64,000 nt of DNA from a virus (Duplodnaviria; Heunggongvirae; Uroviricota; Caudoviricetes), in IMG/VR virus record IMGVR_UViG_3300029522_000074, one strand, 5' to 3'. The position numbers and the translations under genes are program-made. This document shows positions 2,576 through 49,880 of this stretch, in pieces (position 1 is the first letter of the stretch; every line of letters begins with the position of its first letter). The notes under the pieces were generated by a model that made no database searches, had not been told where the DNA came from, and worked only from the letters and a program-made list of their open reading frames with translations.

Positions 2576-2842
2576 CTCCTACATTCCAACATATTCAGGA
2601 AATTTTTCATAGATTTTATTCCACTCTTCAATAATTCTTCTATTCATAATTTCCTGATCAATCAATTCTTCTACGATTTTTGCAGTAGCACACTGCGTCT
2701 GACTTCTAAGAATTTTACAAGCATTTTTCTTATACTCTTCTAAATCTTCTATAGAAACACTTGACAGCATTGTATTTTCATTTGTTAATCCTTGCATTAC
2801 TGATGGTGTTATCATTCGTTTCACCTCCACACGAAACCGATA

Positions 2843-3403
2843 TTACTTATTTTTTGATTCAAATTCTTCAAATGCTTTATAAAACTCACTGCCTTTTATC
2901 TCTTCAAAACCATTTTCATAAGGAGTTAATGAATTATAGCGATTAGTACTCATACGTAAGTATTGTTTTCCATTGTATTCAAAACTTGTTCTTGAATAGC
3001 CACCCATTTCCGTTTCTTCGAAGTAGTCTCCACACCTCAAAGGATAAGCATTAATAACTATCTCCTTTTTAATACATTCATCTTGAAATTGCTTTAATAT
3101 TTTGCAACCTTTTTTAAACTTTCTCATACTTTGACCTTCAAACATTTTAGGTTTGTTTAATTGATTACCAAATTTTTCACTATTTTCCTGCACATCATCA
3201 ATATACAATTCAATATTACTTTTTGTGTTTTCCTTAAACGCAACATTAACATTACCATCTCCACGCATATAATAATGATTTCCACTTATTCCTATGCGAT
3301 TGAAAAAATCTTTGATAAATTCTCTTCTGTTTTTTTCTATTACTTCATCACGATGTAACCCTTTTAAAAAATCTTCATTTGTTACAATATAAAATTTCTC
3401 CAT
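2843..3403 (-). CDS. hypothetical protein
   Basis: 186 aa ORF directly downstream of the AdSS-like gene. Confidence 0.4.
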   Translation of the reverse strand: MEKFYIVTNEDFLKGLHRDEVIEKNRREFIKDFFNRIGISGNHYYMRGDGNVNVAFKENTKSNIELYIDDVQENSEKFGNQLNKPKMFEGQSMRKFKKGCKILKQFQDECIKKEIVINAYPLRCGDYFEETEMGGYSRTSFEYNGKQYLRMSTNRYNSLTPYENGFEEIKGSEFYKAFEEFESKNK

Positions 3404-3445
3404 TTTTTACCTCCATATTTCCAAAAGAACGAATCTTTCTTGTTC

Positions 3446-4537
3446 TCAGTTCACATCATTATGTGTTTCACCATCTGAGTAATAAATATTCCAATCCTTG
3501 AATAACTCAATCAATTTATCATTATCCCAATCATATTCATTACAATGTGTAATGGTGATTGATTTTTTATCTCCAAAGTTTCCTATATCATTAGAGCATC
3601 TACTATATAATTCTCCTAAATCCAGTGTTCCATATCTCAATGTATCCTGGAATGGATTTGGCACATTTGTTTTATCAAACATATATTCGTTGATAAATCT
3701 CTTATTACATTCAGATGGGAATTTACCAGCACCATGTCTTGTTAAATAAGTACGCGATACATAACAAGTTTCAATATTTATCTCATCATTCCATTCAACA
3801 TTTTCAATTATTCTCTTGGGATTTTTAATACCTGTATTAGACGGTGTTAGATGTGGAAAATATTCTGTGTTGTTCTGATCAAGCAATAAACCTTGTGCAG
3901 CTTCAAATACAATATTGTCAAATTGATTTAAGAAATAATTATCTGATATAGCCAATGAGTGATTATTCATAAAATCCCAATCATCTAAAAAGTGTTCAAA
4001 TATACCATTATCAAGGAATATTTTTGACCATTCATCTGTTAATATAATATTCTCTCTTTCAAATTGTTCTAAGTAGTATTCCCTGATATGATTATCTACA
4101 TCAGTTATGCCAGCTTTATATCTTTTGATAGTTTCAAAAATTCCCAAGCCACAACTACCATGTTTATTTTTTCCACGATTTTCTTCTATAATCTGATTTG
4201 CCATCATATCAAAAGGTGTAGTCAACATACAATTTTGATTGATATAAACATTCGTAATATATCCTAATTTCATCAATTCATCATATTCCTGCTTAAAGAT
4301 AATTGGATTAACAATAAAATCCTCAGATAAATATGTACTTGCATGATTGAATGTTCCAGATCCAAAATGATGAAAGACATGTCTGATTCCATCAGGCGTT
4401 GTTACGGTATGTCCTCTCTGAGCACCACCATTTGAACAAACAACAATACTATTAGGTTTCTGTGAGAAATAATCTGTCATTAATCCCTTTCCACAATCTC
4501 CAAAGTTAGCACCTATTACAATCTTAATGTCTTTCAT
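3446..4537 (-). CDS. adenylosuccinate synthetase family protein, short form (PurA/PurZ-like)
   Basis: P-loop IVIGANFGDCGKG (compare GDEGKGK), GAQRGHTV (compare GHNAGHTV), EAAQGLLLDQNNTEYFPHLTPSNT (compare [22 protein letters not shown]), YLTRHGAGKFP (compare TTRVGSGPFP); 363 aa, the size of archaeal-type PurA and phage PurZ. Confidence 0.75.
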   Translation of the reverse strand: MKDIKIVIGANFGDCGKGLMTDYFSQKPNSIVVCSNGGAQRGHTVTTPDGIRHVFHHFGSGTFNHASTYLSEDFIVNPIIFKQEYDELMKLGYITNVYINQNCMLTTPFDMMANQIIEENRGKNKHGSCGLGIFETIKRYKAGITDVDNHIREYYLEQFERENIILTDEWSKIFLDNGIFEHFLDDWDFMNNHSLAISDNYFLNQFDNIVFEAAQGLLLDQNNTEYFPHLTPSNTGIKNPKRIIENVEWNDEINIETCYVSRTYLTRHGAGKFPSECNKRFINEYMFDKTNVPNPFQDTLRYGTLDLGELYSRCSNDIGNFGDKKSITITHCNEYDWDNDKLIELFKDWNIYYSDGETHNDVN

Positions 4538-12605: not shown

Positions 12606-12803
12606 TTATTCTCCTAATTTCCTTCCACACCAAGGACAATACGAAATATATTCTTTCTGATGAACAAATCCATCGTCATATTCATCCCATTCAGAAGTTT
12701 CAATATCCAAATAATATTCATTTGTCAGTGGATCAACATATATCTGATTGTCAGGTGAATCATAATTACAACGGTTACACATACACTTACCTCGCTCTAT
12801 CAC
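12606..12803 (-). CDS. small zinc-ribbon protein
   Basis: CxxC...CPWCG motifs; 65 aa. Confidence 0.35.
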   Translation of the reverse strand: MIERGKCMCNRCNYDSPDNQIYVDPLTNEYYLDIETSEWDEYDDGFVHQKEYISYCPWCGRKLGE

Positions 12804-13671
12804 ATTCGTTAAAATCTAAAAGCATCTTATATTTATATTCTCCAAATCTTTCTTTCCAACGCTGCTTTGCTTTATCAGTATCCCAACTAAAAGGCATCAT
12901 ATGGTAATTGATGAGGAAACATGTATCTAAAACAACATCAGAATTAACATGATACATAGCTGTCATGTATTGATATGAACCGTAACAATGATGCTGATAA
13001 TAATGAGCTATCCCATCTTCATCAAATGTTTGTGTACTCAATTTGCCTAAATCGTGATACAAAGCACCTATTCTGAATCTTGCAGGATAAGCATATTTTG
13101 TGGAAAATAATCTTGATGCATATTTGCAGTGTTCAAATAAATTCATTGTATGATGCGGACTTTTCTGATCAAATCCTCTCATATCTGGAATATCATTTGG
13201 TTCGTAATCATTTAATAAATTATGAATAATAATCTCATCGAATCCTTCCTCGTAGAACGGAATCTGAAATTTTCTAATCTGCTTATCCAACACAAAGTCA
13301 GGTACAGGATGTTCTCTATGTAGATTATCTTTTTTGCACTGTTCAAATGGCTTTGGAATAATTACACATACTTTTCTGACATTTAAACCATTTACTTTCA
13401 TCATAATTGCTCTGCGAGATTTCATAGTCAGATTAGTCGCATCTGCGATTACATTCTTTTTATTCTCCAAATTCTTACGGATTCTATCATGAAAAATTTT
13501 GAATACTTCTTCATTATGTTCTTGATTTTCGTAATTACCAGTCAATTCCTCACGAATTGCATCGGATGATACGATTATTGTATTTGGATTCTCATTGGCA
13601 ATCTGAGTGGCAATGGTTGACTTGCCACTACCACTCAAACCACACATAATATACAATGTAGGTTTATTCAT
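12787..13671 (-). CDS. P-loop kinase fused to HD phosphohydrolase (polynucleotide kinase-phosphatase-like RNA repair enzyme)
   Basis: N-terminal Walker A GLSGSGKST typical of PNK-type kinases; C-terminal HD signature ALYHDLGK...HYYQHH...D; 8-nt overlap with the upstream RNA ligase gene. Confidence 0.6.
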   Translation of the reverse strand: MNKPTLYIMCGLSGSGKSTIATQIANENPNTIIVSSDAIREELTGNYENQEHNEEVFKIFHDRIRKNLENKKNVIADATNLTMKSRRAIMMKVNGLNVRKVCVIIPKPFEQCKKDNLHREHPVPDFVLDKQIRKFQIPFYEEGFDEIIIHNLLNDYEPNDIPDMRGFDQKSPHHTMNLFEHCKYASRLFSTKYAYPARFRIGALYHDLGKLSTQTFDEDGIAHYYQHHCYGSYQYMTAMYHVNSDVVLDTCFLINYHMMPFSWDTDKAKQRWKERFGEYKYKMLLDFNECDRAR

Positions 13672-14983
13672 TTAAAGTCTCCTCGAATAACTCTTCAGCT
13701 TCTTCCATATCAGGCACATCAGATGTATCTTTAGCAATCCCCTCAATTACCTTAAATTCAAACACCTTATCCTTATAAGCTGTGAATGTTGCTCTATTAT
13801 CAATACGAACAACTACACCTTCAGCAACATGTGTCTTACCGATTTCATCTGCTGGCATACCATCAAGATATTTATTTACTCTTTCTTTCAAATCTTCTGG
13901 TGTAGTAAAAATAAACTTCTCTAAATCAGGTACATGCTTAACGCCCAACTTGTCACACCATACTTCTACAGTTTCCCAAGGCACTTCAACAACTGTTCCG
14001 TCTGCTGTTGTCATTGTCATTCGATATACATACATCTCATTTTCGCCTTGTTCACAGCCATATGAGAATGTTGTGGTGTCACCAAATTTCTTAGTAAATT
14101 CTTTTTCCTTAACTCCCTTATTAGATACTGAACCCATAATTGGTGTTGTTTCATTTACATATCCGACAATTTCATAGAAAATTTCAGCACCTTCAGGAAG
14201 CTTGTCTTTTAATAAATCGTGGTACTTCTTTCTAAATCCATTATCAGAATAATATCCATCATTCTTTGTCATATCCTTTAACACAACTCTTCTGCTACCA
14301 GATACAACAGAAACTTCTCTTATAACCTTTGGTTTCATATGTAAAAACTTTCTCAGCTTACTATTCTTCTTTGTAACCTTAACAGTCTTCATAGTACGAG
14401 CCGATGTTCCGTGGAGCTTACGAGTAATATAAATTGTATCTCCTGGCTTAAATGCTGATATATTATATGCAAGCTGTGCAGTATCTTTATGCTCCTCAAA
14501 AAATGGATATGATACTGTTTCTTTCTGAAACTTATTTTTCTTCTTTAAATTATTTCCATTACCTCTTGAACGATTTTTTCCTCTTGGAATATATTTTTGA
14601 CAAATCTCATGACCACCAAGAACTGTAATCTGATCGCCATCTTTTAATTTTGAAATATCTGTATACTTAGAAAGTGTTTCAACAGGTAATACAAGTCCTT
14701 CTGACTTCTCACCTCTAAGTCTAATAGCGGTTACATTTCTCTTCTCAGCATCCATATAACCACCAATGTTGTTTCCATTCTTATCTTTCTTTCTGACAAG
14801 GTTATTATCTGCTGCATACTCAAGTGATAACTGACCGTCAGATGGGAAGAATACTACTTTCTGTCCTTCCTGATAATTCAAATCTACAATTACATTCTGT
14901 CCAAATACCTCTACACACTGTAACCTATCAGCGTTACTATGTTTTCTTAATCCTTTTAATGTTGTGATATAAGCACAATACAT
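13664..14983 (-). CDS. ATP-dependent RNA ligase-like protein (N-terminal OB-like domain plus nucleotidyltransferase)
   Basis: Candidate motif I lysine in ITRKLHGTSA; 439 aa; co-transcribed with the kinase/HD gene as in phage tRNA-repair modules. Confidence 0.5.
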   Translation of the reverse strand: MYCAYITTLKGLRKHSNADRLQCVEVFGQNVIVDLNYQEGQKVVFFPSDGQLSLEYAADNNLVRKKDKNGNNIGGYMDAEKRNVTAIRLRGEKSEGLVLPVETLSKYTDISKLKDGDQITVLGGHEICQKYIPRGKNRSRGNGNNLKKKNKFQKETVSYPFFEEHKDTAQLAYNISAFKPGDTIYITRKLHGTSARTMKTVKVTKKNSKLRKFLHMKPKVIREVSVVSGSRRVVLKDMTKNDGYYSDNGFRKKYHDLLKDKLPEGAEIFYEIVGYVNETTPIMGSVSNKGVKEKEFTKKFGDTTTFSYGCEQGENEMYVYRMTMTTADGTVVEVPWETVEVWCDKLGVKHVPDLEKFIFTTPEDLKERVNKYLDGMPADEIGKTHVAEGVVVRIDNRATFTAYKDKVFEFKVIEGIAKDTSDVPDMEEAEELFEETLNE

Positions 14984-19759: not shown

Positions 19760-20497
19760 TTACGCCTGATACATAAAACTTGGCATTGGCTGTAATTTAA
19801 ACAGATTTTTCTCATGCATTGAATCAATCTTAGCTTTTACTTCCTCATTTGGCTCAATTCCATCTCTGATATATGCATCTAATTCAGCATAAGTAAATCC
19901 AAGGTTATCTTCATCAGTCTTTCCGCAAAGACCATCGGTAGGTGTCTTATCAACTAATTCTGACGGAAGCCCCAACTCACGACCAATAGCTTTAACCTCT
20001 GTTACTGTAAGCTGAGATAACGGACTGAAATCACCAGCAGCGTCACCATATTTCGTGGCGTAACCCACCCAATCTTCGGAAAGATTACACGTATTTGCAA
20101 CTCGACCATTTACTGTCTGTGATACTGCATAAAGCGTAGTCATACGAATACGAGCAGGAAGATTTGTTGTTGTCTGAATTGATAACTCTTCATCTAATGA
20201 TGTTTTAATTTCATATTCAGTAACATTCACAATTGTTCCGACTGGAATAATAGTACGTGGAATGTCTAAAAAACTGCAAAGTTTACGACTATATTCGATA
20301 TCTCTTTGTCTTCCCTGTGGCATCATCACACCAAAAACTCTATCCTTACCAAGAGCTTCTACACATAATGCAGCTACAACACTTGAATCCTTACCGCCAG
20401 AAATTCCCACTACTGCCATACAATCTTTACCATTCTGTTCAAACCAATTTCTGATCCACTCTACGATTTCATTTTTTACTTTCTTAGCATCAAACAT
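19760..20497 (-). CDS. nadE: NH3-dependent NAD+ synthetase
   Basis: PP-loop VVGISGGKDSSV, ARIRMTTLYAV, DFSPLSQLTVTEVKAIGRELGLP; 245 aa like Bacillus NadE. Confidence 0.85.
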   Translation of the reverse strand: MFDAKKVKNEIVEWIRNWFEQNGKDCMAVVGISGGKDSSVVAALCVEALGKDRVFGVMMPQGRQRDIEYSRKLCSFLDIPRTIIPVGTIVNVTEYEIKTSLDEELSIQTTTNLPARIRMTTLYAVSQTVNGRVANTCNLSEDWVGYATKYGDAAGDFSPLSQLTVTEVKAIGRELGLPSELVDKTPTDGLCGKTDEDNLGFTYAELDAYIRDGIEPNEEVKAKIDSMHEKNLFKLQPMPSFMYQA

Positions 20498-20513
20498 TTA
20501 TATATTCTCCTTC

Positions 20514-21140
20514 CTACATTCGATTCATCACATCATAGAACCGAATTAAATACTCATATACATTTCTAGGAACTAATTCTTTTACCTTTTCAAATTCACT
20601 CTTTTCACATAAATCTCTAACCAAACTTGAAGAAGTATGATTTTCTGGTATCTGAATTTCTGTGAAGTGATCTTTATATTCCATAAGATTTGCTTCTCTT
20701 AAAGCAGTCTCAAGATTCTGACCTTCTCTCACACATGCTACAAAATTATATTCCTCAACAAACGGTTTCCAATTATACCAAGTTGTAAGTGTTTCAATAT
20801 TATCCATTCCTAAACAAATATAGTATTCGTTGAAGATATAATCTTTTTCATTCATATCTCTTATCTGAGTAATAGTATTGTATGTCCTCTGTGGAAAGAA
20901 GCTGGTTGTTTCAACTTCGGATGCCCACATATTATTTTCATCACAATTTGGCATTGAATTAATTAGCGATACTCGACAATATCCAGGTATCAAAGTCTTT
21001 TTCTTCGCAACATATGTATCATGTGCAGGAATAAACAATATAGCATCGGCATTAACCGCTTTTTTAGCAGTCAATGCCATATCAACATGGGCGTTGGTAA
21101 TTGGATTAAAACTTCCTGGTATAAGTAAAATTTTATTCAT
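20514..21140 (-). CDS. nadD: nicotinate/nicotinamide mononucleotide adenylyltransferase (NadD/NMNAT-like)
   Basis: Nucleotidyltransferase motif PGSFNPITNAHV (HxGH-type); adjacent to pncB and nadE. Confidence 0.6.
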   Translation of the reverse strand: MNKILLIPGSFNPITNAHVDMALTAKKAVNADAILFIPAHDTYVAKKKTLIPGYCRVSLINSMPNCDENNMWASEVETTSFFPQRTYNTITQIRDMNEKDYIFNEYYICLGMDNIETLTTWYNWKPFVEEYNFVACVREGQNLETALREANLMEYKDHFTEIQIPENHTSSSLVRDLCEKSEFEKVKELVPRNVYEYLIRFYDVMNRM

Positions 21141-22434
21141 GATCCATTCTCCAATTAATACATCTCTTTAGATAATCAACATAATCAGGGTTTTTACACA
21201 TGCCTTTGCCTTCTACATCAGACACTTTTGCAACATCCATACCATTACATTTAGTGGTTTTCATTACAATATTTAAAGCAGGAACATCTGTGTCATTACT
21301 CAAATAAGTACCAATTCCAAATGCAACGTTTACTCTATCATGGAAGTGTCTAAATAACTTATCAGCTCTTTCAAAATCAAGACTGTCACTAAACAGAAGT
21401 GTCTTTGTCTTAGGATTGATACCAAGTGACTCATAATGATTAATCATTTTTTCACCCCATTCAATCGGATCGCCACTATCATGTCTTACACCACTGAATA
21501 ATGTTGCATATGTCAACTGAAAATCTTTCAAGAAACAATCAGTTGTAATTGTATCTGTGAGCGCAATACCATTTAACACACCATACTCTCTAACCCATGC
21601 GTCTAGGGCATACCAGTTTGAATATGCTGGATTGTGCTTGTGATTACCCTGACCAGAACACATAATCCATTCATGAGCCATAGTTCCAACAGGTGTAAGG
21701 TTATATTTCTTTGCAAGATATACATTAGAAGTGCCAACAAACTTAGATGGACTATGCAATGTATCATTCAAATGTGAAAACTTCTCAACAACTAATTCCT
21801 GTGCTTCAGCAGAAAGTCTTCTTCTAAGACCAAATTCAGAAAATGTACCAGCATACCAATGACCGCTTCTGAGATTTTCATACTTTTCATCTAATCTCTT
21901 TTTGAAACTATTAAGTAATTCCTCATAGTTATATGCCATTCTGAAATATACTTCGTTTACAATCGCAAGTGTAGGAATCTCATACATAGATGTATTAAGC
22001 CATGTACCAAATGTTTCGATAGAAAGACCGCAATCTGAATCTGTTGTAATTTCAAAATCCTCATATCTTGGCTGCCATAATCTCAGAAAATCAACATACG
22101 AACCTTTCATCCATTTGATATTATCAATATAAGTAAGTTCATCTTCTGTGAATCTCAAACCACAATATAATTTAATCTGTCTGCGAATCTCTTCTACCAT
22201 TTCTGGTGTAAAATGAACATCCTTATTACGACACTTAAAACTCCAAGTGGTTTTATAATCACTAAACTGATGATAAATAGCCTGTCCCATTGACAATTTG
22301 TAAGCATCTGTCTCCAATAAACTTGTAATAATCTGTTTCATATTATTTTCCTTCTTTCTTGATTTGATTAAATATTGTTCTAATATCATATTCTCTGTTT
22401 TCGTACTCATAAAACAGATTAATATACTTATCAA
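21133..22434 (-). CDS. pncB: nicotinate phosphoribosyltransferase
   Basis: LLETDAYKLSMGQAIYHQF matches E. coli PncB LLDTDAYKLHMQQAVFHH; likely true start is the internal Met at about 22341 (about 402 aa). Confidence 0.8.
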   Translation of the reverse strand: MISILICFMSTKTENMILEQYLIKSRKKENNMKQIITSLLETDAYKLSMGQAIYHQFSDYKTTWSFKCRNKDVHFTPEMVEEIRRQIKLYCGLRFTEDELTYIDNIKWMKGSYVDFLRLWQPRYEDFEITTDSDCGLSIETFGTWLNTSMYEIPTLAIVNEVYFRMAYNYEELLNSFKKRLDEKYENLRSGHWYAGTFSEFGLRRRLSAEAQELVVEKFSHLNDTLHSPSKFVGTSNVYLAKKYNLTPVGTMAHEWIMCSGQGNHKHNPAYSNWYALDAWVREYGVLNGIALTDTITTDCFLKDFQLTYATLFSGVRHDSGDPIEWGEKMINHYESLGINPKTKTLLFSDSLDFERADKLFRHFHDRVNVAFGIGTYLSNDTDVPALNIVMKTTKCNGMDVAKVSDVEGKGMCKNPDYVDYLKRCINWRMDHE

Positions 22435-23506: not shown

Positions 23507-24856
23507 TTAATATTCCCAATCATCATTCCTAACTTGGAATACATCGCCACACTCTTCAATATCTGGATAATTATATGTGGCAACATTCATAGCATATTTA
23601 TCTATTTCGTATGCTTTATATGTAATATTTGTAAATCCCATTTTCTCCAAACAATACCTGCCAGTAGCAATACCATCATACAAACTTAGAACTTCAATAG
23701 GATAATCTCGTGGAACATTCTTCAATCCATGATTTAAAATGTGAATAATTACTTCTGCCGTCCATCCATTGCCAATTTGTTTATATCTCTGAGTAGCACT
23801 GTTTTTTGGTGCTGCTGTATAATTATCTGGTAATGTCTGTAGTCTTTCACATTCTAATGGTGTTAATTTACGGATAAGATAATATCCATCTTTTAGTTTT
23901 ATTGGGTATAATCCATCTTTATAGCCAATAAGACCGTCTTTAACAAGATAGATCATTTTCCCATCAACAGATAAATTTCCATTCTCATACCATTCAATCT
24001 TTTTATATTTGCTTAAATCAATTACTTCTATCTCTTCACACATAACATTGTATGGAACACCTTTATGCAGATTTGCCAATAGACACTGAGACTTGTCTTT
24101 GTTAGATACTTGAATATATCCAAAATCAAAATGATTTCTTCCACCTGCTACAGTTCTGACCATATATTCCATTTCTTTTTCACTGAGATGTTTAAAACTG
24201 TCTTCTGTAATGGAAATTGGTGTCATATACAAACCAGTTTTTGCACCTTGACCACCACCGTTACTTGTAAGATTTACACTTTTCCCATCTGAACTATATA
24301 CTCTATGAGCCTGAGCAGTTGTGTCTATATCACCAATACGAATAGGTTCATCACTTTCTGCAATATTAACAGGTGTAAAAGCTACTTGAGTATGATGTTT
24401 TTTTAAATAATCTCGTGCATTTCCTGCTTGATGTTTTAAACAATAGGCTTTCTCTTTATCAACAATTCCATATTCAAGTACGTCTTTTAAAAAGATATGT
24501 CGATCTTCTGGTTGTGGAACATTTGAAATATTTGTACAATAAATTCTCTTCCTCTGTTGTGCTGATACCAAAGCACTATTAATATGTAATAGTGGATAAC
24601 CCAATTCTTCACTAATCTGACTCTTTATTTCTTCCGCAGCGGATTCATTGTTTTCGTACAAAAAGATATCTGGTTTCCACCTTTCTTTCGCCACCACATA
24701 ATTTAAGAATAATTCCCATCCTTCTCCCTCTGCTTTTGTCTCACGATTTTTTCTTTGTGCAATAGACCAATGAGTGCATGGCGAACCACCTATTAACAAA
24801 CGTAATGGTTGTCCATTAAGTTCACAATAAGTATTTTTTTCTTTATTCTCTGTCAA
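23507..24856 (-). CDS. DNA cytosine-C5 methyltransferase with circularly permuted motif order (IV-VI-VIII-TRD-IX-X then I-II-III)
   Basis: GGSPCTHWSIAQ (PC motif IV), FLYENNE (ENV-like VI), QQRKRIY (VIII), RKLTPLECERLQTLPDNY and GNGWTAEVI (IX and X), then C-terminal SLYDGIATGRYCL (motif I FxGxG); probable TTG start. Confidence 0.65.
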   Translation of the reverse strand: MTENKEKNTYCELNGQPLRLLIGGSPCTHWSIAQRKNRETKAEGEGWELFLNYVVAKERWKPDIFLYENNESAAEEIKSQISEELGYPLLHINSALVSAQQRKRIYCTNISNVPQPEDRHIFLKDVLEYGIVDKEKAYCLKHQAGNARDYLKKHHTQVAFTPVNIAESDEPIRIGDIDTTAQAHRVYSSDGKSVNLTSNGGGQGAKTGLYMTPISITEDSFKHLSEKEMEYMVRTVAGGRNHFDFGYIQVSNKDKSQCLLANLHKGVPYNVMCEEIEVIDLSKYKKIEWYENGNLSVDGKMIYLVKDGLIGYKDGLYPIKLKDGYYLIRKLTPLECERLQTLPDNYTAAPKNSATQRYKQIGNGWTAEVIIHILNHGLKNVPRDYPIEVLSLYDGIATGRYCLEKMGFTNITYKAYEIDKYAMNVATYNYPDIEECGDVFQVRNDDWEY

Positions 24857-31307: not shown

Positions 31308-31362
31308 TTAAGTACCTCCATTTGAATCTAAAACCATTATTTCTCCTTTCTTTAATATTTAA

Positions 31363-31435
31363 TGTGCCATAAGGGACTTGAACCCTCAACATCTTGATTA
31401 AAAGTCAAGTGCTCTACCTATTGAGCTAATGGCAC
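31363..31435 (-). tRNA. tRNA-Lys (anticodon UUU)
   Basis: Manual cloverleaf: acceptor GTGCCAT/ATGGCAC, D-arm GCTC-AATAGGTA-GAGC, anticodon arm CTTGA-CTTTTAA-TCAAG, T-arm GAGGG-TTCAAGT-CCCTT, discriminator A. Confidence 0.8.
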
Positions 31436-31439
31436 ACAG

Positions 31440-31512
31440 CTAGGATGGTGGGATTCGAACCCACGAATGTCAGAATCAAAATCTGATGTGTTGACCGCTT
31501 CACCACATCCCA
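31440..31512 (-). tRNA. tRNA-Gln (anticodon UUG)
   Basis: Manual cloverleaf: U1-A72 acceptor TGGGATG/CATCCTA (one G-U), anticodon arm TCAGA-TTTTGAT-TCTGA, T-arm GTGGG-TTCGAAT-CCCAC. Confidence 0.75.
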
Positions 31513-32948: not shown

Positions 32949-34385
32949 TTAAGCAGCTCCTCCATTTGCATTGACGAAATTATCAAAACTTCTCTTCATA
33001 TATTTGAAATTGACTTCCTGCGAAGGACTGAGATTCTGCCACTTTCTTGACTGACAATTTTCAATCCATTTTCCTAATTCAACATCTCTATCGCATTTGT
33101 AAGCATAAGCAGTTAAAGCCATTAATGCTATAGAACACTGCTTGTATAATTCAGAATCAATGTTTACATATGAATCCATAAAATCCTGATATTCTTCAAT
33201 ATCTTCATTTGATACATCTTTTGAAACATTATTCTGAATAAATTCAAGCGTTGAATCTGATTCACACGACTTTGTATCAGACTCATTTATATTATTCTCT
33301 GTTTCTGAATTAGTTTCTTCTGTAATATGTAAATATTCCTTCATAAGCTGTTCGAGCATGTTAAGTTTTGCCTTAACAACTTTCTTATCTTTAGTTCCCT
33401 TACCATCATCATAAGTATCGAAACTCTTATTCTCATATTCTACAAATGTCTTGCTATGTAATGTTTTCTGAAACTCTTCAAGAAAATCAATAAATTTAAT
33501 ATCTTCAATTCCAAACTGTGTAAATGTATGAAAAGCAGCGAACCATATAAATGAATTTTTTGAATTAAACAATTTACCTACTGTGTCTTGATCAGTAATC
33601 TCATACAACCTATTGAGTTCATTCTCAAATACCTCAAATTCATCTTTCGTTGCATTTTCATTAAGATACAAACTCATTTGTTTTGATTTCTTCCAGTTAT
33701 CAAGATGAAACATAGTCATAATAGATTCACACACAATTCTGTTAAATACTTCCTTTGTATCTTCTTTTGGATTATAATTTCCACAATCCATAAAGAAACG
33801 ATTGCTGACGAGTTTTTTTATCTCAGGTGCTATCTTCCAAGCAACCAAAATATTTTTCTGATTTACATTCATACTTGTCTGTCTGTTATATCTTGCAATA
33901 TGATAGGCTATTTCTTCATCTGTACAATCAAGATGTTTGACTATATCAACAGCATAACTATCGAATTTTTCCTTTAATTCATCTGGTAAATCTTTGTATT
34001 TTTTACCTCTAAGATCATATTTAATAACTCCAACTTTTCCATTCTCATCAACTCCTTGATAGTACATAATTGGCATTTCAAGACTCTTCTTAATTTCAAA
34101 AGCATTATTCTTAAATGATTCAAGAACAGTTAATCTCTGCAATCCATCAATAAGCCAAAGAATGAACTCTGTCGAGCTTACAATCTGCTCACATATTTTA
34201 ATGGAATCAATATCCTCTCCTTTGATTATAGTGGCAGCAAGTCCTGACTTTGCCTCATCTGACCATTGATCAGGCTTTCTCTGCAAAGGATGATTCTTAT
34301 TAATCTGACCTCTTTTAAACTGATTAAGTAATGTTCCTAACATCATCTGATCTTTTTTAACTTTGTCTCTTCCCACCATTGTCAT
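32949..34385 (-). CDS. DUF262 (ParB/Srx-like, GmrSD N-terminal-type) domain protein
   Basis: Signature LIDGLQRLTVL (DGQQR motif) and upstream KGEDIDSIKI block; 478 aa. Confidence 0.6.
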   Translation of the reverse strand: MTMVGRDKVKKDQMMLGTLLNQFKRGQINKNHPLQRKPDQWSDEAKSGLAATIIKGEDIDSIKICEQIVSSTEFILWLIDGLQRLTVLESFKNNAFEIKKSLEMPIMYYQGVDENGKVGVIKYDLRGKKYKDLPDELKEKFDSYAVDIVKHLDCTDEEIAYHIARYNRQTSMNVNQKNILVAWKIAPEIKKLVSNRFFMDCGNYNPKEDTKEVFNRIVCESIMTMFHLDNWKKSKQMSLYLNENATKDEFEVFENELNRLYEITDQDTVGKLFNSKNSFIWFAAFHTFTQFGIEDIKFIDFLEEFQKTLHSKTFVEYENKSFDTYDDGKGTKDKKVVKAKLNMLEQLMKEYLHITEETNSETENNINESDTKSCESDSTLEFIQNNVSKDVSNEDIEEYQDFMDSYVNIDSELYKQCSIALMALTAYAYKCDRDVELGKWIENCQSRKWQNLSPSQEVNFKYMKRSFDNFVNANGGAA

Positions 34386-34402
34386 AACTTGTTTCCTCCT
34401 AA

Positions 34403-35044
34403 TTAAAATAATAATGATATGTATTCATATTTTCTTAACCCTGATAAACAATCATTGTATTCATTTGCAGTTATATGTAATATTTTCAATATCTCATCTT
34501 TTGTATATTGTTGAGATAATAACCTCGCTACCCTTTCCTGTTTTCGTGGTAATTGCTGTAAATATAACTCAACCTTGTCAGTATATTCTTCTGTGAATAT
34601 TTCTCTTTCTACATTCTCTCTTGAAGGTAAATTCTCTTTAATACTTTTCACCTCATCTGTATTAACATCCAATGAGACATTCATAATAATTTGAGGATTA
34701 CCCTTTTCATCAAGAATTAGTTTTCCATTTTCGTCCCTTAAGAGATTCTGACGCTTTAACCTATATTTGTTGTCTCTCATCCATGTGCTTGTCTTTCTTG
34801 CAATATTACCCGTCAGAAAAGTTTCAAAACGAGATTTATTTTGATCAAATGAGACTACTGCTTCCATAAGACAATCCATTGCCACCTCATATAAATCATC
34901 GTATTCACTAACTTCAACTTTTCCATGCCAAATCTTATGACATATTCTTTTTAATTTTTTGTTTTCGTTGTCTGAATAATCATTAATAATTTTCATCATT
35001 TCAGGATTATTGTTAATAACCCTCATCATCTCTTCATTAATCAT
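34403..35044 (-). CDS. sigma-70 family RNA polymerase sigma factor (phage-encoded)
   Basis: Region 2-like FETFLTGNIARKTSTWMRDNKY and C-terminal region 4-like HTH LSQQYTKDEILKILHITANEYNDCLSGL. Confidence 0.6.
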   Translation of the reverse strand: MINEEMMRVINNNPEMMKIINDYSDNENKKLKRICHKIWHGKVEVSEYDDLYEVAMDCLMEAVVSFDQNKSRFETFLTGNIARKTSTWMRDNKYRLKRQNLLRDENGKLILDEKGNPQIIMNVSLDVNTDEVKSIKENLPSRENVEREIFTEEYTDKVELYLQQLPRKQERVARLLSQQYTKDEILKILHITANEYNDCLSGLRKYEYISLLF

Positions 35045-35239
35045 TTCTTCTACCCGCCTTTTGAATTTCTTTATTCATATATTCCCCGAAAGACAATTCA
35101 GAATTCATAATTTTAATATGCTTAGTTTCTCTTTTACATTTTGGACACTTACAATATCTATTATGTCGATTTCTTTCTCCTGGTTGAAAACTCATAGTCT
35201 CTACCATAGGAATTAAACAGTTTCTACATATCACCATAA

Positions 35240-35908
35240 TTAATCCTCCAATATATCATTAGCCATTTTCCAATATTCCGTTCTTCCTTTGTAATCATCG
35301 CTAGTGACTTTACTAAGTTCTAATTTTATCTTCTCGATGTTGTATCCTTTGACTATCGCATCTTGCATAACCTGAACGTACCTTATACATTGCTTTATTC
35401 GTTTATGCTTATCTCGTATATCATCAAGTAAATATCCTATCTTTGCTACCTTATGAGCTTGTGGTTTCTTACCATTATGTATTTTCTTATATTTTTCTAA
35501 TGCATGATTAATATCACTCTCAGCACTATCACACTTTGACAACTCCGTATTTAATAAATTTTTATATGTTATAAGTTGATTGTCGTCCCAACCCACTAAT
35601 CCCAAAATGGAATTAGCTTCTGATTCAATCTTGTCTAATAAGGCATAATCAAAATTATTTTTATCTCCTATATAGATATCTGCATTTCCTCTATAATAAA
35701 GAGATTTATCAGACTTCTGCCCCGTATCCACATCAATAAGATTATATTTCTTAATCCATGAATACTTCTTTCTGCTGTTCTGTACTAATGACCTCGCTTG
35801 TTTGTAAGTAAACTCCTTTGCCATAGAACTCGAAGTCGTTATCATATACTCACCTGACTTCATAGGATTCTCCATAACATAATTTTTTCCATCTGTTAGA
35901 ATAAACAA
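35240..35908 (-). CDS. hypothetical protein
   Basis: 222 aa ORF. Confidence 0.4.
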   Translation of the reverse strand: MFILTDGKNYVMENPMKSGEYMITTSSSMAKEFTYKQARSLVQNSRKKYSWIKKYNLIDVDTGQKSDKSLYYRGNADIYIGDKNNFDYALLDKIESEANSILGLVGWDDNQLITYKNLLNTELSKCDSAESDINHALEKYKKIHNGKKPQAHKVAKIGYLLDDIRDKHKRIKQCIRYVQVMQDAIVKGYNIEKIKLELSKVTSDDYKGRTEYWKMANDILED

Positions 35909-36019
35909 AAAACATCACTCCTCTCTGATTTTTGACGCACTTTAATAAGCCTTGGGTATACCAAAGAAAAATTAAAATGCTATTAAATTGTTAAAATTTG
36001 GAAAAATTCTGCGAATGCA

Positions 36020-36048
36020 TTGATTTTTATATAATTGATATGTATAAT
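36020..36048 (+). promoter_or_regulatory. sigma-70-type promoter, TTGATT -35, 17-bp spacer, TATAAT -10, plus strand
   Basis: Seen directly at 36020-36025 and 36043-36048; near-consensus elements. Confidence 0.5.
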
Positions 36049-36054
36049 TTAAAT

Positions 36055-36143
36055 GCGTACTAGTCTTTTTCCCCCAAGAAATAGATTTTGTATGTTGCTT
36101 GACTAGAAAGTTGGTAGCTGGCTAGTCAAGCATTTTTTATTTT
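36055..36143 (+). ncRNA. candidate ~90-nt small RNA transcribed antisense to the dominant minus-strand orientation
   Basis: Bounded by the consensus promoter and by the intrinsic terminator GCTTGACTAG-15 nt loop-CTAGTCAAGC + ATTTTTTATTTT (36097-36143); only a 17-aa ORF inside. Confidence 0.4.
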
Positions 36144-36209
36144 CTTTTCCATTATATTACTCCGAACATGTGTTTGTGTCAATATAAATTCGAACAAAAA
36201 TTCGAGAAA

Positions 36210-36506
36210 TTATCTTAGCAAAATATCATGCATAATTCCCTTCTTAATAATATTTTTTATGTCCTGTTCGACATTAAATAGTTGCATATGAGGAATGTAC
36301 TCATCCTCATTCACAATTATTGTTTTTGATTTTCTAACTAATAAGCACCCATCATCAGGTGTTGCAATTTTCTTTGAAGAAGTATTATTATCAAAATCCA
36401 TTGTAAGTATTACTACATTCTTAGGATTTTTCCCTTCAGCTTTCAGCTTTTGTAATCTTTCAATTGCTTCGTCAATTGAGGTATAATCATATGTTTCTGT
36501 CTTCAT
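36210..36506 (-). CDS. hypothetical protein co-transcribed downstream of mazF (candidate cognate inhibitor)
   Basis: 98 aa ORF starting 19 nt after the mazF stop. Confidence 0.4.
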   Translation of the reverse strand: MKTETYDYTSIDEAIERLQKLKAEGKNPKNVVILTMDFDNNTSSKKIATPDDGCLLVRKSKTIIVNEDEYIPHMQLFNVEQDIKNIIKKGIMHDILLR

Positions 36507-36524
36507 GATATTCTCTCCTCTCCC

Positions 36525-36875
36525 TTATATCAAAGCCAAACTTATTTTCATCGCTTCCATAACCTTTAAACTATCTTCAGCAGATAATTCACCAATTTTA
36601 AATTGAATCCGATCTTTATCAATCGTTGTAATCTGCTCTAATGCCACAACAGAATCATATTTTAGTCCATTAAGCTCATCTTTATGTATTTCTACATGTG
36701 TTGGCAATTCTCTTTTAGACTTGGTTGTTATAATGGCAATTATAGTGGTAGGGCTAAACTTATTGCCAATATTGTTTTGCAATATCAGTACCGGTCTTTT
36801 ACCACTCTGTTCTGAGCCTTTAGAATCGTATTTAGTTATATCAGCGAAATATATTTCACCACGTTTAATTTCCAT
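36525..36875 (-). CDS. mazF: MazF/PemK-family endoribonuclease toxin (EndoA/NdoA-like)
   Basis: EIKRGEIYFADI...SEQSGKRPVLILQNNIGNKFSPTTIIAIITTK...PTHVEI...YDSVVALEQITTIDKDRI...ISLALI closely parallels Bacillus EndoA; own promoter TTGACA-17-TATTAT and RBS AGGAGGG. Confidence 0.8.
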   Translation of the reverse strand: MEIKRGEIYFADITKYDSKGSEQSGKRPVLILQNNIGNKFSPTTIIAIITTKSKRELPTHVEIHKDELNGLKYDSVVALEQITTIDKDRIQFKIGELSAEDSLKVMEAMKISLALI

Positions 36876-37001
36876 TATGTTAGCCCTCCTTTCTCTGTTT
36901 GTCCCTTTTGATATTTTATATAATACATCATATTATAATATATGTCAACATATATTATTGATTAATATATTATTTTTTACTATAATACAAATAAATAATA
37001 T

Positions 37002-37223
37002 ATGAAGAGGTGCTATATGTACAAGCTTAATGTAAAAAATCTTTTAGATGCAAAAGGTAAAACACAATATTGGCTTTCTAAACAAACAGGGATATCCGCA
37101 AATAATGTAAGCAAAATCTATAATGGAGAAACAATCAATATTAGACTTGATACAATTAATAAATTGTGTGAAGCATTAGAATGTACACCATGCGAATTAT
37201 TTATTAAGGACGATACAAAATAA
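37002..37223 (+). CDS. XRE-family helix-turn-helix transcriptional regulator
   Basis: HTH QYWLSKQTGISANNVSKIYNGE; promoter TTGATT-17-TATAAT and RBS GAAGAGGTG; start may be the Met at 37017; divergent from mazF. Confidence 0.75.
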   Translation: MKRCYMYKLNVKNLLDAKGKTQYWLSKQTGISANNVSKIYNGETINIRLDTINKLCEALECTPCELFIKDDTK

Positions 37224-43847: not shown

Positions 43848-44399
43848 TTAATTGAATGGCATATAGTCTTCATCCTCTTCACCATTTTCCTTAAAAATAT
43901 CGTCATCTTCTCCATTATCAATACAAGTATCATAACCATCATTTCCAATTGTAAAATGTTGAAGAAAATCAACTTCAATAAAATTCGCCATTTCTTGAAT
44001 TTTTCTTGTGATATTAATATCATTTACACTTGCATCTTTTGAACCATTTGGATGATTATGAGCTACAATAAATTTATTCGCACCAGACAATAATAGAAAT
44101 ATTGCAAGCTCTCTCATTTTTATTATAGAAGTATCTGCTGTTCCATGTGATAGTTCAAATACTCCTTGTGGAATCATTTGACAATTAAATGACATAATAT
44201 AAACATATTCTTCTTCAAGATATTTCGTTTCAAATACTTGATTAAAAAAATCCACCATTTTATCATATGAAGAAAAATCCGAATTCCATTGAATTTTCTC
44301 TTTCTCTTTTAACATAGGTAAATTATTCTCTTTATTCCTAAATGTAATATATCTTTTAATCTCCATTATATATTCTCCTTTAAAAAATAGATTTTGCAA
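43848..44399 (-). CDS. RadC-like JAB/MPN domain protein
   Basis: JAMM-type motif FIVAHNHPNGSKDASVNDINIT; 183 aa. Confidence 0.7.
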   Translation of the reverse strand: MQNLFFKGEYIMEIKRYITFRNKENNLPMLKEKEKIQWNSDFSSYDKMVDFFNQVFETKYLEEEYVYIMSFNCQMIPQGVFELSHGTADTSIIKMRELAIFLLLSGANKFIVAHNHPNGSKDASVNDINITRKIQEMANFIEVDFLQHFTIGNDGYDTCIDNGEDDDIFKENGEEDEDYMPFN

Positions 44400-45399
44400 T
44401 TATATTAGCAGCCATATCATTATACTGATTTAAATTATTTTTCAAATATATCTTTGTTGTTTCGGTTCTAGCATGTCCTAATAACTGCTGAACCACATAT
44501 ATATTTTCATCTGTCTTTCCCAACATAATATTTGCAAACGAAGCCCTTAATTTATGAGGTGTTACTGAATATCCAAGAGCTTCCTTTGTATATTTTATAA
44601 CAATATCAGATAATGATCTTTGTGTCATACGAGTTTTTGATTTTGAAATGAATAACGCATCTTCATTTTTATCTATTATTTTTTCTCGATCACACATCCA
44701 ATCTAAAATAGCCTTTTCTAATTGAGAACTCATAGTAAAAGTCCTGTCTTTATGCCCCTTCTCAATTACACTTTTAATAATATGATTTTCAAAATCAATA
44801 TCTTCAACATTGATTTCGCTTAATGCTGTTTCACGTATTCCAGTTTGCATAAATAACATCATAATTGCTCTGTCTCTTGATTTCCATTTATATTGCATAG
44901 CAACTGACCTTCTATTTCCTGCTCCACATTCTACAGCCAATAGTACTTCTTTTAAATCATCTTCATCTAAGAATTTTCTATTAACAAAATCTTCTCCACG
45001 AACCCTTTTTATTTTATTCATAGGATTTTCAGTTATATAATCATTCTCCGTTAAGAAATCAAAAAAACTTTTTAATACACTATGATAACATTTCCTGTAA
45101 GATAATGAAGATTGTTTTTTATTTCCATTATTATCTGTTATATATTCTATTGAATCCAAAAAACGAGTAATGTCAAACTTTGTTATTTCAATAACTTTAA
45201 TATGTTTAATATCACTCGGATTAATGTAATATAAAAATTTTGCTATTTTTCTTATATATTCTCTACATGCTGTTGGTTGCCTTCCTGATTTAAATTCATA
45301 ATAATATTCTGTCACATATTGTGGTAATGAAGACAATATTTCTTTTATATTTTTTTCTATTTGTAATGAATGTTCTAATCTACCTTTCATTTTTATCAC
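44380..45399 (-). CDS. tyrosine recombinase / integrase (second copy)
   Basis: TPHKLRASFA and LLGHARTETTKIYL catalytic motifs. Confidence 0.8.
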   Translation of the reverse strand: MIKMKGRLEHSLQIEKNIKEILSSLPQYVTEYYYEFKSGRQPTACREYIRKIAKFLYYINPSDIKHIKVIEITKFDITRFLDSIEYITDNNGNKKQSSLSYRKCYHSVLKSFFDFLTENDYITENPMNKIKRVRGEDFVNRKFLDEDDLKEVLLAVECGAGNRRSVAMQYKWKSRDRAIMMLFMQTGIRETALSEINVEDIDFENHIIKSVIEKGHKDRTFTMSSQLEKAILDWMCDREKIIDKNEDALFISKSKTRMTQRSLSDIVIKYTKEALGYSVTPHKLRASFANIMLGKTDENIYVVQQLLGHARTETTKIYLKNNLNQYNDMAANIIAKSIF

Positions 45400-49355: not shown

Positions 49356-49880
49356 TCATCGTATCATTGTTTCATCAAATTCAACATTATATTTTTCAGA
49401 AATAGATTTTGTAAGTTTCATACTTGTAATAATATTTTCAAACCCATACTCCTCATACAATGCTGTTAATTCATCGAAAAGTAAAGTTCTATCGCTATAT
49501 TTAAGTCTTCGGAAAGCTACCTCTTCAATTAAGTCTCCATTTTTATCTACTTTATCAAGATATATTTCTATATCAGTTGTAGAAGAAAAACAACCTTTGT
49601 ATTTTTGTATTTTTATTATGTTTGTTGTTTTGATTTTCTGCTTTTCGATTAATTCTGATTCATACACTTTTTTATTTTCATTGAGAACATTTAAGAATTC
49701 TTTAGTTTCCACAATTTTACGATTTACATCATCTAAAAGATTTTTTAATCCATTAATTGTTGCTCCCTGTAATTCTTCTCTTTTAACTGATTTCATAATA
49801 TTTTCCTCCAATCTTCCAAAGAAACTCTTGTTTCCTTGCCTAGTTTCTTTCATATTTATAATAGCTTCCGAACCATACAA
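49356..49880 (-). CDS. hypothetical protein
   Basis: 174 aa ORF. Confidence 0.4.
   Translation of the reverse strand: MYGSEAIINMKETRQGNKSFFGRLEENIMKSVKREELQGATINGLKNLLDDVNRKIVETKEFLNVLNENKKVYESELIEKQKIKTTNIIKIQKYKGCFSSTTDIEIYLDKVDKNGDLIEEVAFRRLKYSDRTLLFDELTALYEEYGFENIITSMKLTKSISEKYNVEFDETMIR

Follow-up and report, generated by a model that had tools for sequence, protein, structure and literature searches.

A predicted ~85-nt antisense RNA gene facing a promoter with LexA-type boxes ahead of a sigma-factor operon in a family of large human-gut phages

The virus record IMGVR_UViG_3300029522_000074 (IMG/VR; Caudoviricetes) was analysed over a stretch of 64,000 nucleotides (nt), called here the window. 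It has a G+C content of about 31%, and nearly all of its genes lie on the minus strand. Between a module with a MazF/PemK toxin gene and an operon with a sigma-factor gene, both on the minus strand, lies an intergenic region. On the plus strand, it carries a promoter of the sigma-70/sigma-A type, P(+), followed by two hairpins (HP1 and HP2) and a U-tract. A second promoter, P(-), faces it from the minus strand, carries two LexA-type boxes and heads the leader of the sigma-factor operon (Table 1). The two facing promoters, the terminator and the two boxes are referred to below as the cassette. An earlier reading made from the DNA letters (the sequence-only reading) had proposed a phage small RNA at this place, inside an all-minus-strand gene array. 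The latter description fits the surrounding genes but not a helix-turn-helix (HTH) gene at 37002-37223, which is an exception to the minus strand. The evidence given below indicates that the promoter-terminator pair is very probably a real gene for a non-coding RNA of about 85 nt, kept by a family of large human-gut phages.

Table 1. Features of the cassette and of its neighbourhood, in window coordinates (aa, amino acids).
Feature	Position	Strand	Details
P(+), sigma-70/sigma-A-type promoter	36020-36048	+	-35 TTGATT 36020-36025, 17-nt spacer, -10 TATAAT 36043-36048
Predicted small RNA	36055-36143	+	~84-89 nt; inferred start G36055, 7 nt past the -10; 3' end in the U-tract
HP1, 5' hairpin	36055-36095	+	apical loop CCCCAA 36072-36077; C5 run 36071-36075
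HP2, terminator hairpin	36096-36132	+	11-bp perfect stem 36096-36106/36122-36132; loop 36107-36121
Terminator U-tract	36133-36143	+	TTTTTTATTTT; starts 1 nt past the stem
P(-), sigma-70-type promoter facing P(+)	36154-36182	-	-35 TTGACA 36182-36177, 17-nt spacer, -10 TAATAT 36159-36154
LexA-type box 1	36163-36176	.	CGAACATGTGTTTG; within the P(-) spacer; in 13/14 representatives
LexA-type box 2	36191-36204	.	CGAACAAAAATTCG; just upstream of the P(-) -35; in 12/14 representatives
Leader of the P(-) transcript	35909-36147	-	~240 nt; 84-100% identical even where neighbouring genes are replaced
Leader hairpin	35937-35980	-	upstream of the ribosome-binding site of the 222-aa gene; loop variable
Operon behind the leader	32949-35908	-	222-aa protein, 66-aa protein, sigma factor, GmrSD_N-like protein
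222-aa protein	35240-35908	-	first gene of the operon
66-aa zinc-ribbon-like protein	35037-35237	-	second gene
Sigma factor	34403-35044	-	Sigma70_r2; PHROG 351
GmrSD_N-like protein	32949-34385	-	fourth gene
98-aa partner candidate	36210-36506	-	between mazF and the cassette; unknown family
MazF/PemK toxin gene	36525-36875	-	upstream neighbour

The hexamers of P(+) are present as the sequence-only reading had claimed. They match the consensus at 10 of 12 positions and are spaced within the 16-18 nt that a sigma-70/sigma-A promoter requires, and promoter activity is predicted from them. Taken alone, these hexamers are weak evidence for a promoter, because promoter-like sites are no commoner in the window than in shuffled sequence (64 found by a consensus promoter scan, 69.7 expected). 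With an empirical null, the chance of a plus-strand site in a 120-nt stretch of the window was p = 0.061 for at least 10/12 matches and p = 0.004 for at least 11/12. In 62 related loci, which are described below, the hexamers are invariant except for T/C at position 5 of the -35 (TTGATT or TTGACT), while the spacer between them is 17 or 18 nt long and differs at five or more positions. A short palindrome (36009-36019) adjoins the -35. It differs among haplotypes yet remains palindromic (TGCGAATGCA and TTGCTGATATGCAA; ATATGCGAAGTGCATAT in the sequence type called H), and it may bind a protein or form a small hairpin in the leader on the minus strand.

The predicted RNA, taken as 89 nt, folds into two hairpins with an energy of -31.6 kcal/mol (z = -7.07). 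HP1 folds with -11.0 kcal/mol on the plus strand (z = -5.6) and with only -3.7 kcal/mol on the minus strand (z = -0.5), since several of its pairs are G-U. In the 10-bp core of HP2, GCTTGACTAG (36097-36106) pairs with CTAGTCAAGC (36122-36131), and the stem reaches 11 bp when the pair U36096-A36132 is counted. The stem energy is -19.8 kcal/mol, and an inner 4-bp stem lowers the effective size of the 15-nt loop. The 10-bp stem is followed by ATTTTTTATTTT (36132-36143). HP2 has the stable G+C-containing stem-loop and the immediate U-tract of an intrinsic (Rho-independent) terminator, and it is unidirectional because the minus strand at this place (AACAUACAAAAUC) lacks a U-tract. The perfect 10-bp stem, 15-nt loop and T-rich tail described earlier were confirmed in this way, and the stem proved extendable by one pair. 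A consensus terminator scan missed HP2 for the sole reason that its loop limit was set to 8 nt. The run of five cytosines, which had been pointed out as unusual, is indeed so: CCCCC was found twice in the 64 kb against about 25 occurrences expected from base composition.

The longest open reading frame (ORF) on the plus strand has 17 codons (MRTSLFPPRNRFCMLLD). No Shine-Dalgarno sequence precedes it, and a 1-nt indel in some relatives destroys its frame. The ORF was therefore rejected as a gene, and we agree with the sequence-only reading that there is no credible ORF. A search of the window against Rfam 15 gave only two tRNAs and no RNA family for the small RNA, and a permissive Rfam scan of 35850-36260 gave chance-level matches only (E above 2). 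A mobile promoter-stem-loop cassette like the PeSL of T4-type phages was rejected, as the element is present in a single copy in the window. The best reading of the plus-strand unit remains a non-coding RNA of about 85-90 nt with its own promoter and terminator, as had been proposed.

The set of close relatives consisted of 62 loci on contigs of 86-372 kb. It comprised 43 loci from IMG/VR found with an exact-stem pattern, 18 from human-gut metagenomes found with a second pattern, and one from anchor searches; the IMG/VR anchor patterns of 14-17 nt gave mostly chance matches and one variant, L076. Nucleotide searches of the INPHARED phages and the PLSDB plasmids revealed nothing similar to the element, and no copy was found in the GTDB representative genomes by a DNA-pattern scan or a sigma-protein scan. 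Among the 62 loci, the RNA core occurs as 19 haplotypes, and the two-hairpin fold is common to all of them. No variation is found in the 3' arm of HP1 within this family. The U-tract is T-rich in every haplotype, as well as in every sequence type described below, despite indels. A block of about 270 bp, which extends from the -35 of P(-) to the downstream gene's ribosome-binding site, is 84-100% identical even where the gene on either side is replaced, and it is unique in the window. Covariation within the window-type family is weakly informative, with one compensatory pair only, a U-A to C-G change in HP2 of the L076 type. The promoter-terminator pair, on whose conservation the sequence-only reading had made its proposal depend, is kept across many related phages.

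The 15-nt loop of HP2 was observed in both orientations with fixed flanks. Among the 62 relatives (L001-L043, L076 and L209-L226), it is window-like (AAAGTTGGTAGCTGG) in 23 loci and inverted (CCAGCTACCAACTTT and its variants) in 39. Locus L020 equals the window from promoter to tail, the flipped loop being the sole difference. The window orientation is probably ancestral, since the homologous terminators of other sequence types carry it. The flips look like small inversions between the perfect 10/11-bp arms, and such flip-flop inversions are known from chloroplast hairpin loops. This would imply that the loop orientation is free of strand-specific selection.

Perfect 10/11-bp inverted repeats around a 15-nt spacer that occurs in both orientations, together with a tyrosine recombinase gene 1.1 kb away, could also point to a site that acts as DNA, such as a recombinase target, a cruciform or an origin-like palindrome, in which the inverted loop would result from site-specific inversion. 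We regard this explanation as extremely unlikely. The core site of a tyrosine recombinase (lox/dif/att-like) has two inverted arms of 11-13 bp and a spacer of 6-8 bp. Here the arms have 10-11 bp, and the 15-bp spacer is too long for such a core and too short to invert by synapsis. Moreover, the hairpin is not matched to the integrase allele, as the same hairpin variant occurs with integrase alleles that are 40% and 99% identical. A recombinase core site was rejected on these grounds. In other sequence types, the stems differ, are imperfect and contain G-U pairs that are valid only in plus-strand RNA, but each still has a promoter before it and a T-run after it.

These other types were found at distant loci, which were reached via the sigma protein and then via homologues of the 222-aa protein. 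This protein has a family of at least 655 members, which come from phages and prophages of the gut. Some family members lie on contigs of 0.27-2.3 Mb, so that some of them are prophages. The gene order at the distant loci is integrase, HTH gene, MazF-family gene, in places a small gene, the intergenic region, the 222-aa or another gene, the 66-aa gene, and the sigma/GmrSD_N genes. The RNA sequence of the window type is absent from these loci. Instead, the architecture is present in the same order and orientation. Beside the window type, at least nine further sequence types were recognised, and 10 types of the 5' part are known in total. The equivalent plus-strand promoter scores 9-11/12 in all 10 types and 11/12 in five of them. 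Every type has a predicted RNA of 73-131 nt with one or more 5' hairpins, followed by a long hairpin and a T-run that adjoin the -10 of P(-). The 5' hairpins take the place of HP1 and are unrelated to it in sequence. Most of the predicted RNAs start with GC(G/A), 7 nt past the -10. A GCGG...CCGU 5' hairpin, with A-U, U-A or U-G as the fifth pair, is common to three types. When the whole RNA was folded, the plus strand was more stable than the minus strand in 12 of the 13 representatives.

The terminator ends of the types were set by hand for the assignment of promoters and RNAs. In the terminator alignment of nine representatives, 89.9% of the cells were paired, compared with 71.6% in shuffles, and 14 of the 18 pairs had changes on both sides, compared with 5.9 expected. 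None of 500 shuffles reached the observed values, and in slid controls 38-50% of the cells were paired. The pairing of the terminator is kept by compensatory change, and its covariation is strong. An Rfam search of five loci carrying other RNA types returned tRNAs only. That the architecture is kept while its sequence is replaced is the strongest argument for P(+), the RNA and the terminator as one selected unit. As separate observations, the leader of some distant relatives (L277, L278, L279 and L283) contains one or two tRNA genes, with the small-RNA gene on one side and the first protein gene on the other, and in L273 an IS605-family TnpB element (2679-3779) is inserted in the cassette and parts the RNA gene from the 3' part of the leader.

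P(-) matches the consensus at 10 of 12 positions in the window and at 10-12 in all 14 representatives. Its hexamers are conserved while its spacer is variable, and in loci with a different upstream gene, similarity goes only just past the -35. The promoter lies about 10-20 nt beyond the terminator in the window, and its start is predicted near 36147, a few nt from the end of the plus-strand U-tract. The starts of P(+) and P(-), which face each other, are thus about 92 bp apart. Both boxes match the Gram-positive LexA operator (Cheo box/dinBox), in the form CGAAC-N4-GTTCG or in the clostridial form GAAC-N4-GTTT/C, box 1 within the promoter spacer and box 2 beside the -35. The LexA consensus of Bacillus subtilis is CGAAC(n)4GTTCG (PMC4551915). 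Box 1 has the clostridial operator form GAACnnnnGTTT; the operators used for C. difficile are GAACnnnnGTTT/C, and lexA, recA and ruvC carry GAAC....GTTT (PMC4234289). Only three LexA-type sites with at most one mismatch occur in the 64 kb, and two of these are boxes 1 and 2; several boxes among the 14 representatives are perfect 14/14 matches. The boxes are constant, whereas the alleles of the neighbouring phage HTH gene are 36-100% identical, which favours a conserved host protein over the phage HTH protein as the binder.

As P(-) faces P(+) and heads the leader, the small RNA is predicted to be cis-antisense to the 5' end of that leader. It is perfectly complementary to about nt +5 to +93 of the P(-) transcript. 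As expected for a cis-antisense RNA, its own promoter is opposite to its target unit and inside it, about 100 nt downstream of the predicted P(-) start; it overlaps no ribosome-binding site, start codon or attenuator of this unit. The sequence-only reading had regarded the RNA as antisense to the 3' end of the mazF-downstream operon and to the read-through into gene 35240-35908. The antisense relation to minus-strand transcription stands, but the main target would be the 5' end of the P(-) leader. The operon of mazF and the 98-aa gene has no terminator of its own, and read-through transcripts would consequently cross the cassette as well.

The leader appears to have a structure of its own. In the leader hairpin, the stem changes (G-C to A-U and C-G to U-G) preserve pairing in minus-strand RNA but not in plus-strand RNA, so each strand appears to carry its own RNA structure, in non-overlapping parts of the cassette. 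In the window type only, a UUUUUCC element (the complement of 36000-36006) can pair either with the G-rich stretch that lies opposite the C-rich loop or with the Shine-Dalgarno sequence; this is not conserved in all types, and we give it little weight. Pairing of the A-rich 5' end of the leader with 35963-35981 was rejected, as it was not seen in other types and is probably low-complexity A/T complementarity. A minus-strand mini-ORF of 8 codons (MEKKIKNA, 36152-36126) was also noted. It begins upstream of the predicted P(-) start, has a good Shine-Dalgarno sequence, GGAG, at 36163-36160, encodes a hydrophilic peptide and has its end within the hairpin arm. A 3-nt indel in some haplotypes leaves the reading frame intact, but in L008 and L218 the frame is broken, and GGAG is absent in several other types. 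The mini-ORF was rejected as a gene because the frame is not conserved, and it is probably not functional.

The sequence-only reading had also considered an RNA antitoxin or decoy for the adjacent MazF endoribonuclease. A MazF/PemK gene is found within about 400-700 nt upstream in every locus examined, it has no upstream antitoxin gene, and the ~35% mazF allele has no obvious adjoining protein partner. Nevertheless, this role was not supported, and we consider it very unlikely. One RNA type was seen beside mazF alleles of about 90%, 41% and 35% identity, and one allele beside different RNA types. The window type is found beside the ~90% and 41% alleles, and types E and F beside the ~35% and 75-86% alleles. 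The 36% allele accompanies type G, and the ~90% allele type H. Such free shuffling of RNA types and mazF alleles does not support a link to MazF. Tandem repeats were searched for in 35800-37100, and none was found except a 16-nt run inside a gene. A type III (ToxI-like) toxin-antitoxin system was rejected for this reason, for the lack of linkage between type and allele, and because the RNA lies on the opposite strand and downstream of mazF, unlike in such systems. A type I system was rejected since no ORF of at least 30 aa, and hence no toxin ORF opposite the RNA, is present in 35909-36209 on either strand. The 98-aa gene strictly co-occurs with the 75-100% mazF allele, the ~35% allele being without an adjacent small gene. 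The 98-aa protein is a likelier MazF partner than the RNA.

The rare C5 run in the apical loop of HP1 invites comparison with RsaE and RoxS, small RNAs of Firmicutes of about 90 nt that end in a terminator, carry a C-run in a hairpin loop and pair with Shine-Dalgarno regions. By analogy, the C/U-rich single-stranded motifs of the phage RNA, such as the CCCCAA loop, could pair in trans with Shine-Dalgarno regions of host or phage mRNAs. The facing arrangement with P(-) would then have no bearing on its function, although this role may also coexist with one in cis. C/U-rich unpaired stretches are present in four of the first five types (e.g., CUCUCCUUU in type H and UUUCCUUAUUCCUUUCCCU in type G), and the invariance of the HP1 3' arm in the window family would agree with such a role. 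A 16-nt exact copy of this arm (36077-36092, GAAATAGATTTTGTAT) lies at 49398-49413, in the minus-strand ORF 49356-49880 (174 aa), the mRNA of which is thus complementary to the small RNA. With E = 0.004, the match is of borderline significance, and the copy may be either a target in trans or a coincidence. The rest of the window contains no G5 targets, Rfam gave no match to RsaE/RoxS or another family, and the sequence types do not all share the C-rich loop. Furthermore, the 5' hairpin, which would bear the seed, can be an entirely different one in phages with 75-95% identity in the flanking genes, while a host target would constrain it. A trans-acting RNA is, in our opinion, a rather unlikely explanation of the cassette, and a host-targeting small RNA, which had been among the earlier suggestions, is disfavoured because the 5' hairpin is hypervariable between close relatives.

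The unit could also act at the level of DNA and polymerase with a functionless RNA product, either by interference between convergent promoters or as an insulating terminator that keeps stray plus-strand transcripts out of P(-). The distance between the two starts is in the range of known promoter interference. The terminator always adjoins P(-), 6-31 nt from its -10 across types, as protection from collisions would need. On the other hand, a strong terminator before P(-) would remove most collision and occlusion by P(+) polymerases, so that interference could be one-way only. A stable, strand-specific 5' hairpin is kept in every type although its sequence is free, which argues for selection on the RNA. 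We find it improbable that the RNA itself is without function.

We favour, with moderate confidence, the reading that the ~85-nt RNA, made head-on to P(-) with its two LexA-type operators, serves as an antisense brake on the sigma-factor operon. The relatives on contigs of 0.27-2.3 Mb, which have an integrase gene and an HTH gene next door, fit temperate elements. In a quiescent state, lysogenic or carrier, host LexA would keep P(-) low. The antisense RNA, produced constitutively, would pair with residual leader transcripts, those arising by read-through from the mazF operon included, and the pairing would probably begin at the exposed loop of the 5' hairpin. The duplex would inactivate these transcripts by cleavage and decay or by refolding of the leader, and a threshold would be set in this way. 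One possible route is that cleavage of the duplex removes the 5' hairpin and opens the mRNA to 5'-3' decay; the other is that the leader refolds. After DNA damage, LexA would be lost, P(-) would fire, and its transcripts would out-titrate the RNA. The polymerases from P(-) would at the same time run across P(+) and occlude it. The switch would then flip, and the sigma-factor operon would be expressed.

Several points weigh against this reading. The weakest link is the effect that pairing in the 5' leader could have on genes at least 130 nt downstream. The Shine-Dalgarno sequence (35926-35918) and the TTG start (35908) of the first gene lie about 130 nt from the small RNA and are not overlapped by it. 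No terminator-like hairpin with a U-run was seen in the minus-strand leader, that is, no terminator that pairing could induce. LexA binding at the boxes is predicted from motif similarity, and one haplotype has CAAAC in place of the CGAAC half-sites. Box 1 is missing from type M, in which the U-tract is also weak, and type H shows no strand asymmetry in folding (-36.0 vs -36.6 kcal/mol). Promoter-like hexamers are common in an AT-rich genome, and the start, the end and the abundance of the small RNA are all deduced from the DNA. The conservation of the ~270-bp block may be due in part to the leader on the minus strand and not to the RNA. Finally, the examination of fold and covariation in related phages, which the sequence-only reading had recommended, found the fold kept and the terminator covarying, but the close relatives are too alike for independent covariation in HP1.

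The variability of the 5' hairpin led us to consider an additional role. The hypervariable hairpin may be the specificity determinant of an RNA-based immunity, in which the RNA of a resident phage would also pair in trans with the leader of any superinfecting phage that shares its type, and thereby block the sigma-factor operon of that phage. Phages of another hairpin type would escape, which would amount to heteroimmunity by kissing hairpins, comparable to the antisense-RNA incompatibility groups of plasmids. This role is unlikely in our estimate. If true, it would explain why the otherwise conserved cassette of closely related gut phages contains at least 10 unrelated 5' hairpins, and also why the hairpin types are shuffled against the neighbouring genes.

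The operon behind the leader has the same synteny in all relatives. The 222-aa protein encoded by its first gene gave no sequence match in Pfam, PHROG or PDB. Its AlphaFold model (pLDDT 74) consists of a small N-terminal beta domain followed by long helices, and a Foldseek search with this model gave coiled-coil-like noise only and no significant fold match. In the case of the sigma protein, the only match in the phage collection was a 30%-identical gene in a fecal phage contig.

Elsewhere in the window, a 685-aa protein is about 60% identical to proteins of Bacillus myoviruses of ~155-165 kb (Tsarbomba, BCP78), and a Firmicute host would be consistent with the strong Shine-Dalgarno sequences and the promoters of sigma-A type. 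A short adenylosuccinate-synthetase homologue (363 aa, 3446-4537) has a PurZ-like size, from which 2-aminoadenine DNA is a possibility. A PNK-like AAA_33 protein beside an RNA ligase (12787-14983) could serve in tRNA repair. The window also contains genes for NAD synthase and NAPRTase (19760-22434), a C5 cytosine methylase (23507-24856), tRNA-Lys and tRNA-Gln (31362-31512), and a second tyrosine recombinase (44380-45399).

If the antisense brake is true, large (~90-220 kb) phages and prophages of human-gut Firmicutes, which form a widespread family, would control the operon of their own sigma factor by two stacked inputs, the host SOS repressor and a short antisense RNA. Antisense control of sigma factors would then be a common design, and the many natural variants of the RNA would be available for tests of specificity. 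Given the LexA-type boxes, DNA-damaging drugs are predicted to induce these uncultured phages, and the cassette can be used as a compact marker for the switch region in metagenomic contigs. The mechanism is not of a new kind, and beyond the anatomy of the locus, we infer transcription, LexA binding, and the sign and molecular route of regulation.

Phage antisense RNAs are known from P22 (sar/ant, in immI), lambda (OOP) and P1/P7 (c4). Like sar, the RNA described here would be a short, terminated, non-coding antisense RNA with two hairpins, and its promoter would face the promoter of a lytic function in the control region of a temperate phage. The sar RNA overlaps the ribosome-binding site of ant, whereas the present RNA overlaps none. 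Unlike the present RNA, c4 arises by processing of a longer transcript, and it acts in trans, on a site close by. No relationship to sar, OOP or c4 was found in sequence or in Rfam.

In prgQ of the plasmid pCF10, the promoters are convergent, and the antisense RNA Anti-Q pairs with the 5' leader. The same is described for icsA of Shigella flexneri, where the sense 5' leader is paired by the antisense RNA RnaG (PMC2879508). Both systems resemble the phage cassette in having convergent promoters about 100-220 bp apart and pairing in the 5' leader. RnaG and Anti-Q differ from it in inducing an intrinsic terminator in the nascent leader, of which none is visible in the phage leader, and RnaG, with 450 nt, is much longer than the phage RNA.

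In GIL01, a phage of Bacillus thuringiensis, the lytic promoter is held by host LexA (PMC4551915). GIL01 resembles the phages described here in having a phage promoter with a 14-bp box of the CGAAC(n)4GTTCG type and a second, weaker box (PMC4551915). It differs in that a small co-repressor protein, gp7, takes part and no antisense RNA does, and in the position of the boxes, which lie downstream of the start in GIL01 and flank the -35 in the cassette.

To our knowledge, sigN of the plasmid pBS32 is the only case in which antisense control of a sigma factor has been studied experimentally. Its authors called it perhaps the first case (PMC10601692). The sigN gene (zpdN) of B. subtilis has a LexA-repressed sigma-A promoter, and cis antisense transcripts raise the threshold of its expression; SigN itself is a toxic, autoactivating sigma factor (PMC10601692). 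The two sigma proteins are not close relatives, as a tblastn search of PLSDB with the phage protein gave no match, and the control in the phage is read from sequence. Antisense transcription in pBS32 starts from promoters downstream of sigN and runs back through the gene, giving long transcripts, whereas the phage cassette has a short, terminated RNA that covers the 5' end of a long leader, two genes before the sigma gene. In its logic, pBS32 sigN is nonetheless the closest system, since in it the sigma factor of a prophage-like element is under an SOS input and an antisense brake, as proposed here for the phage cassette.

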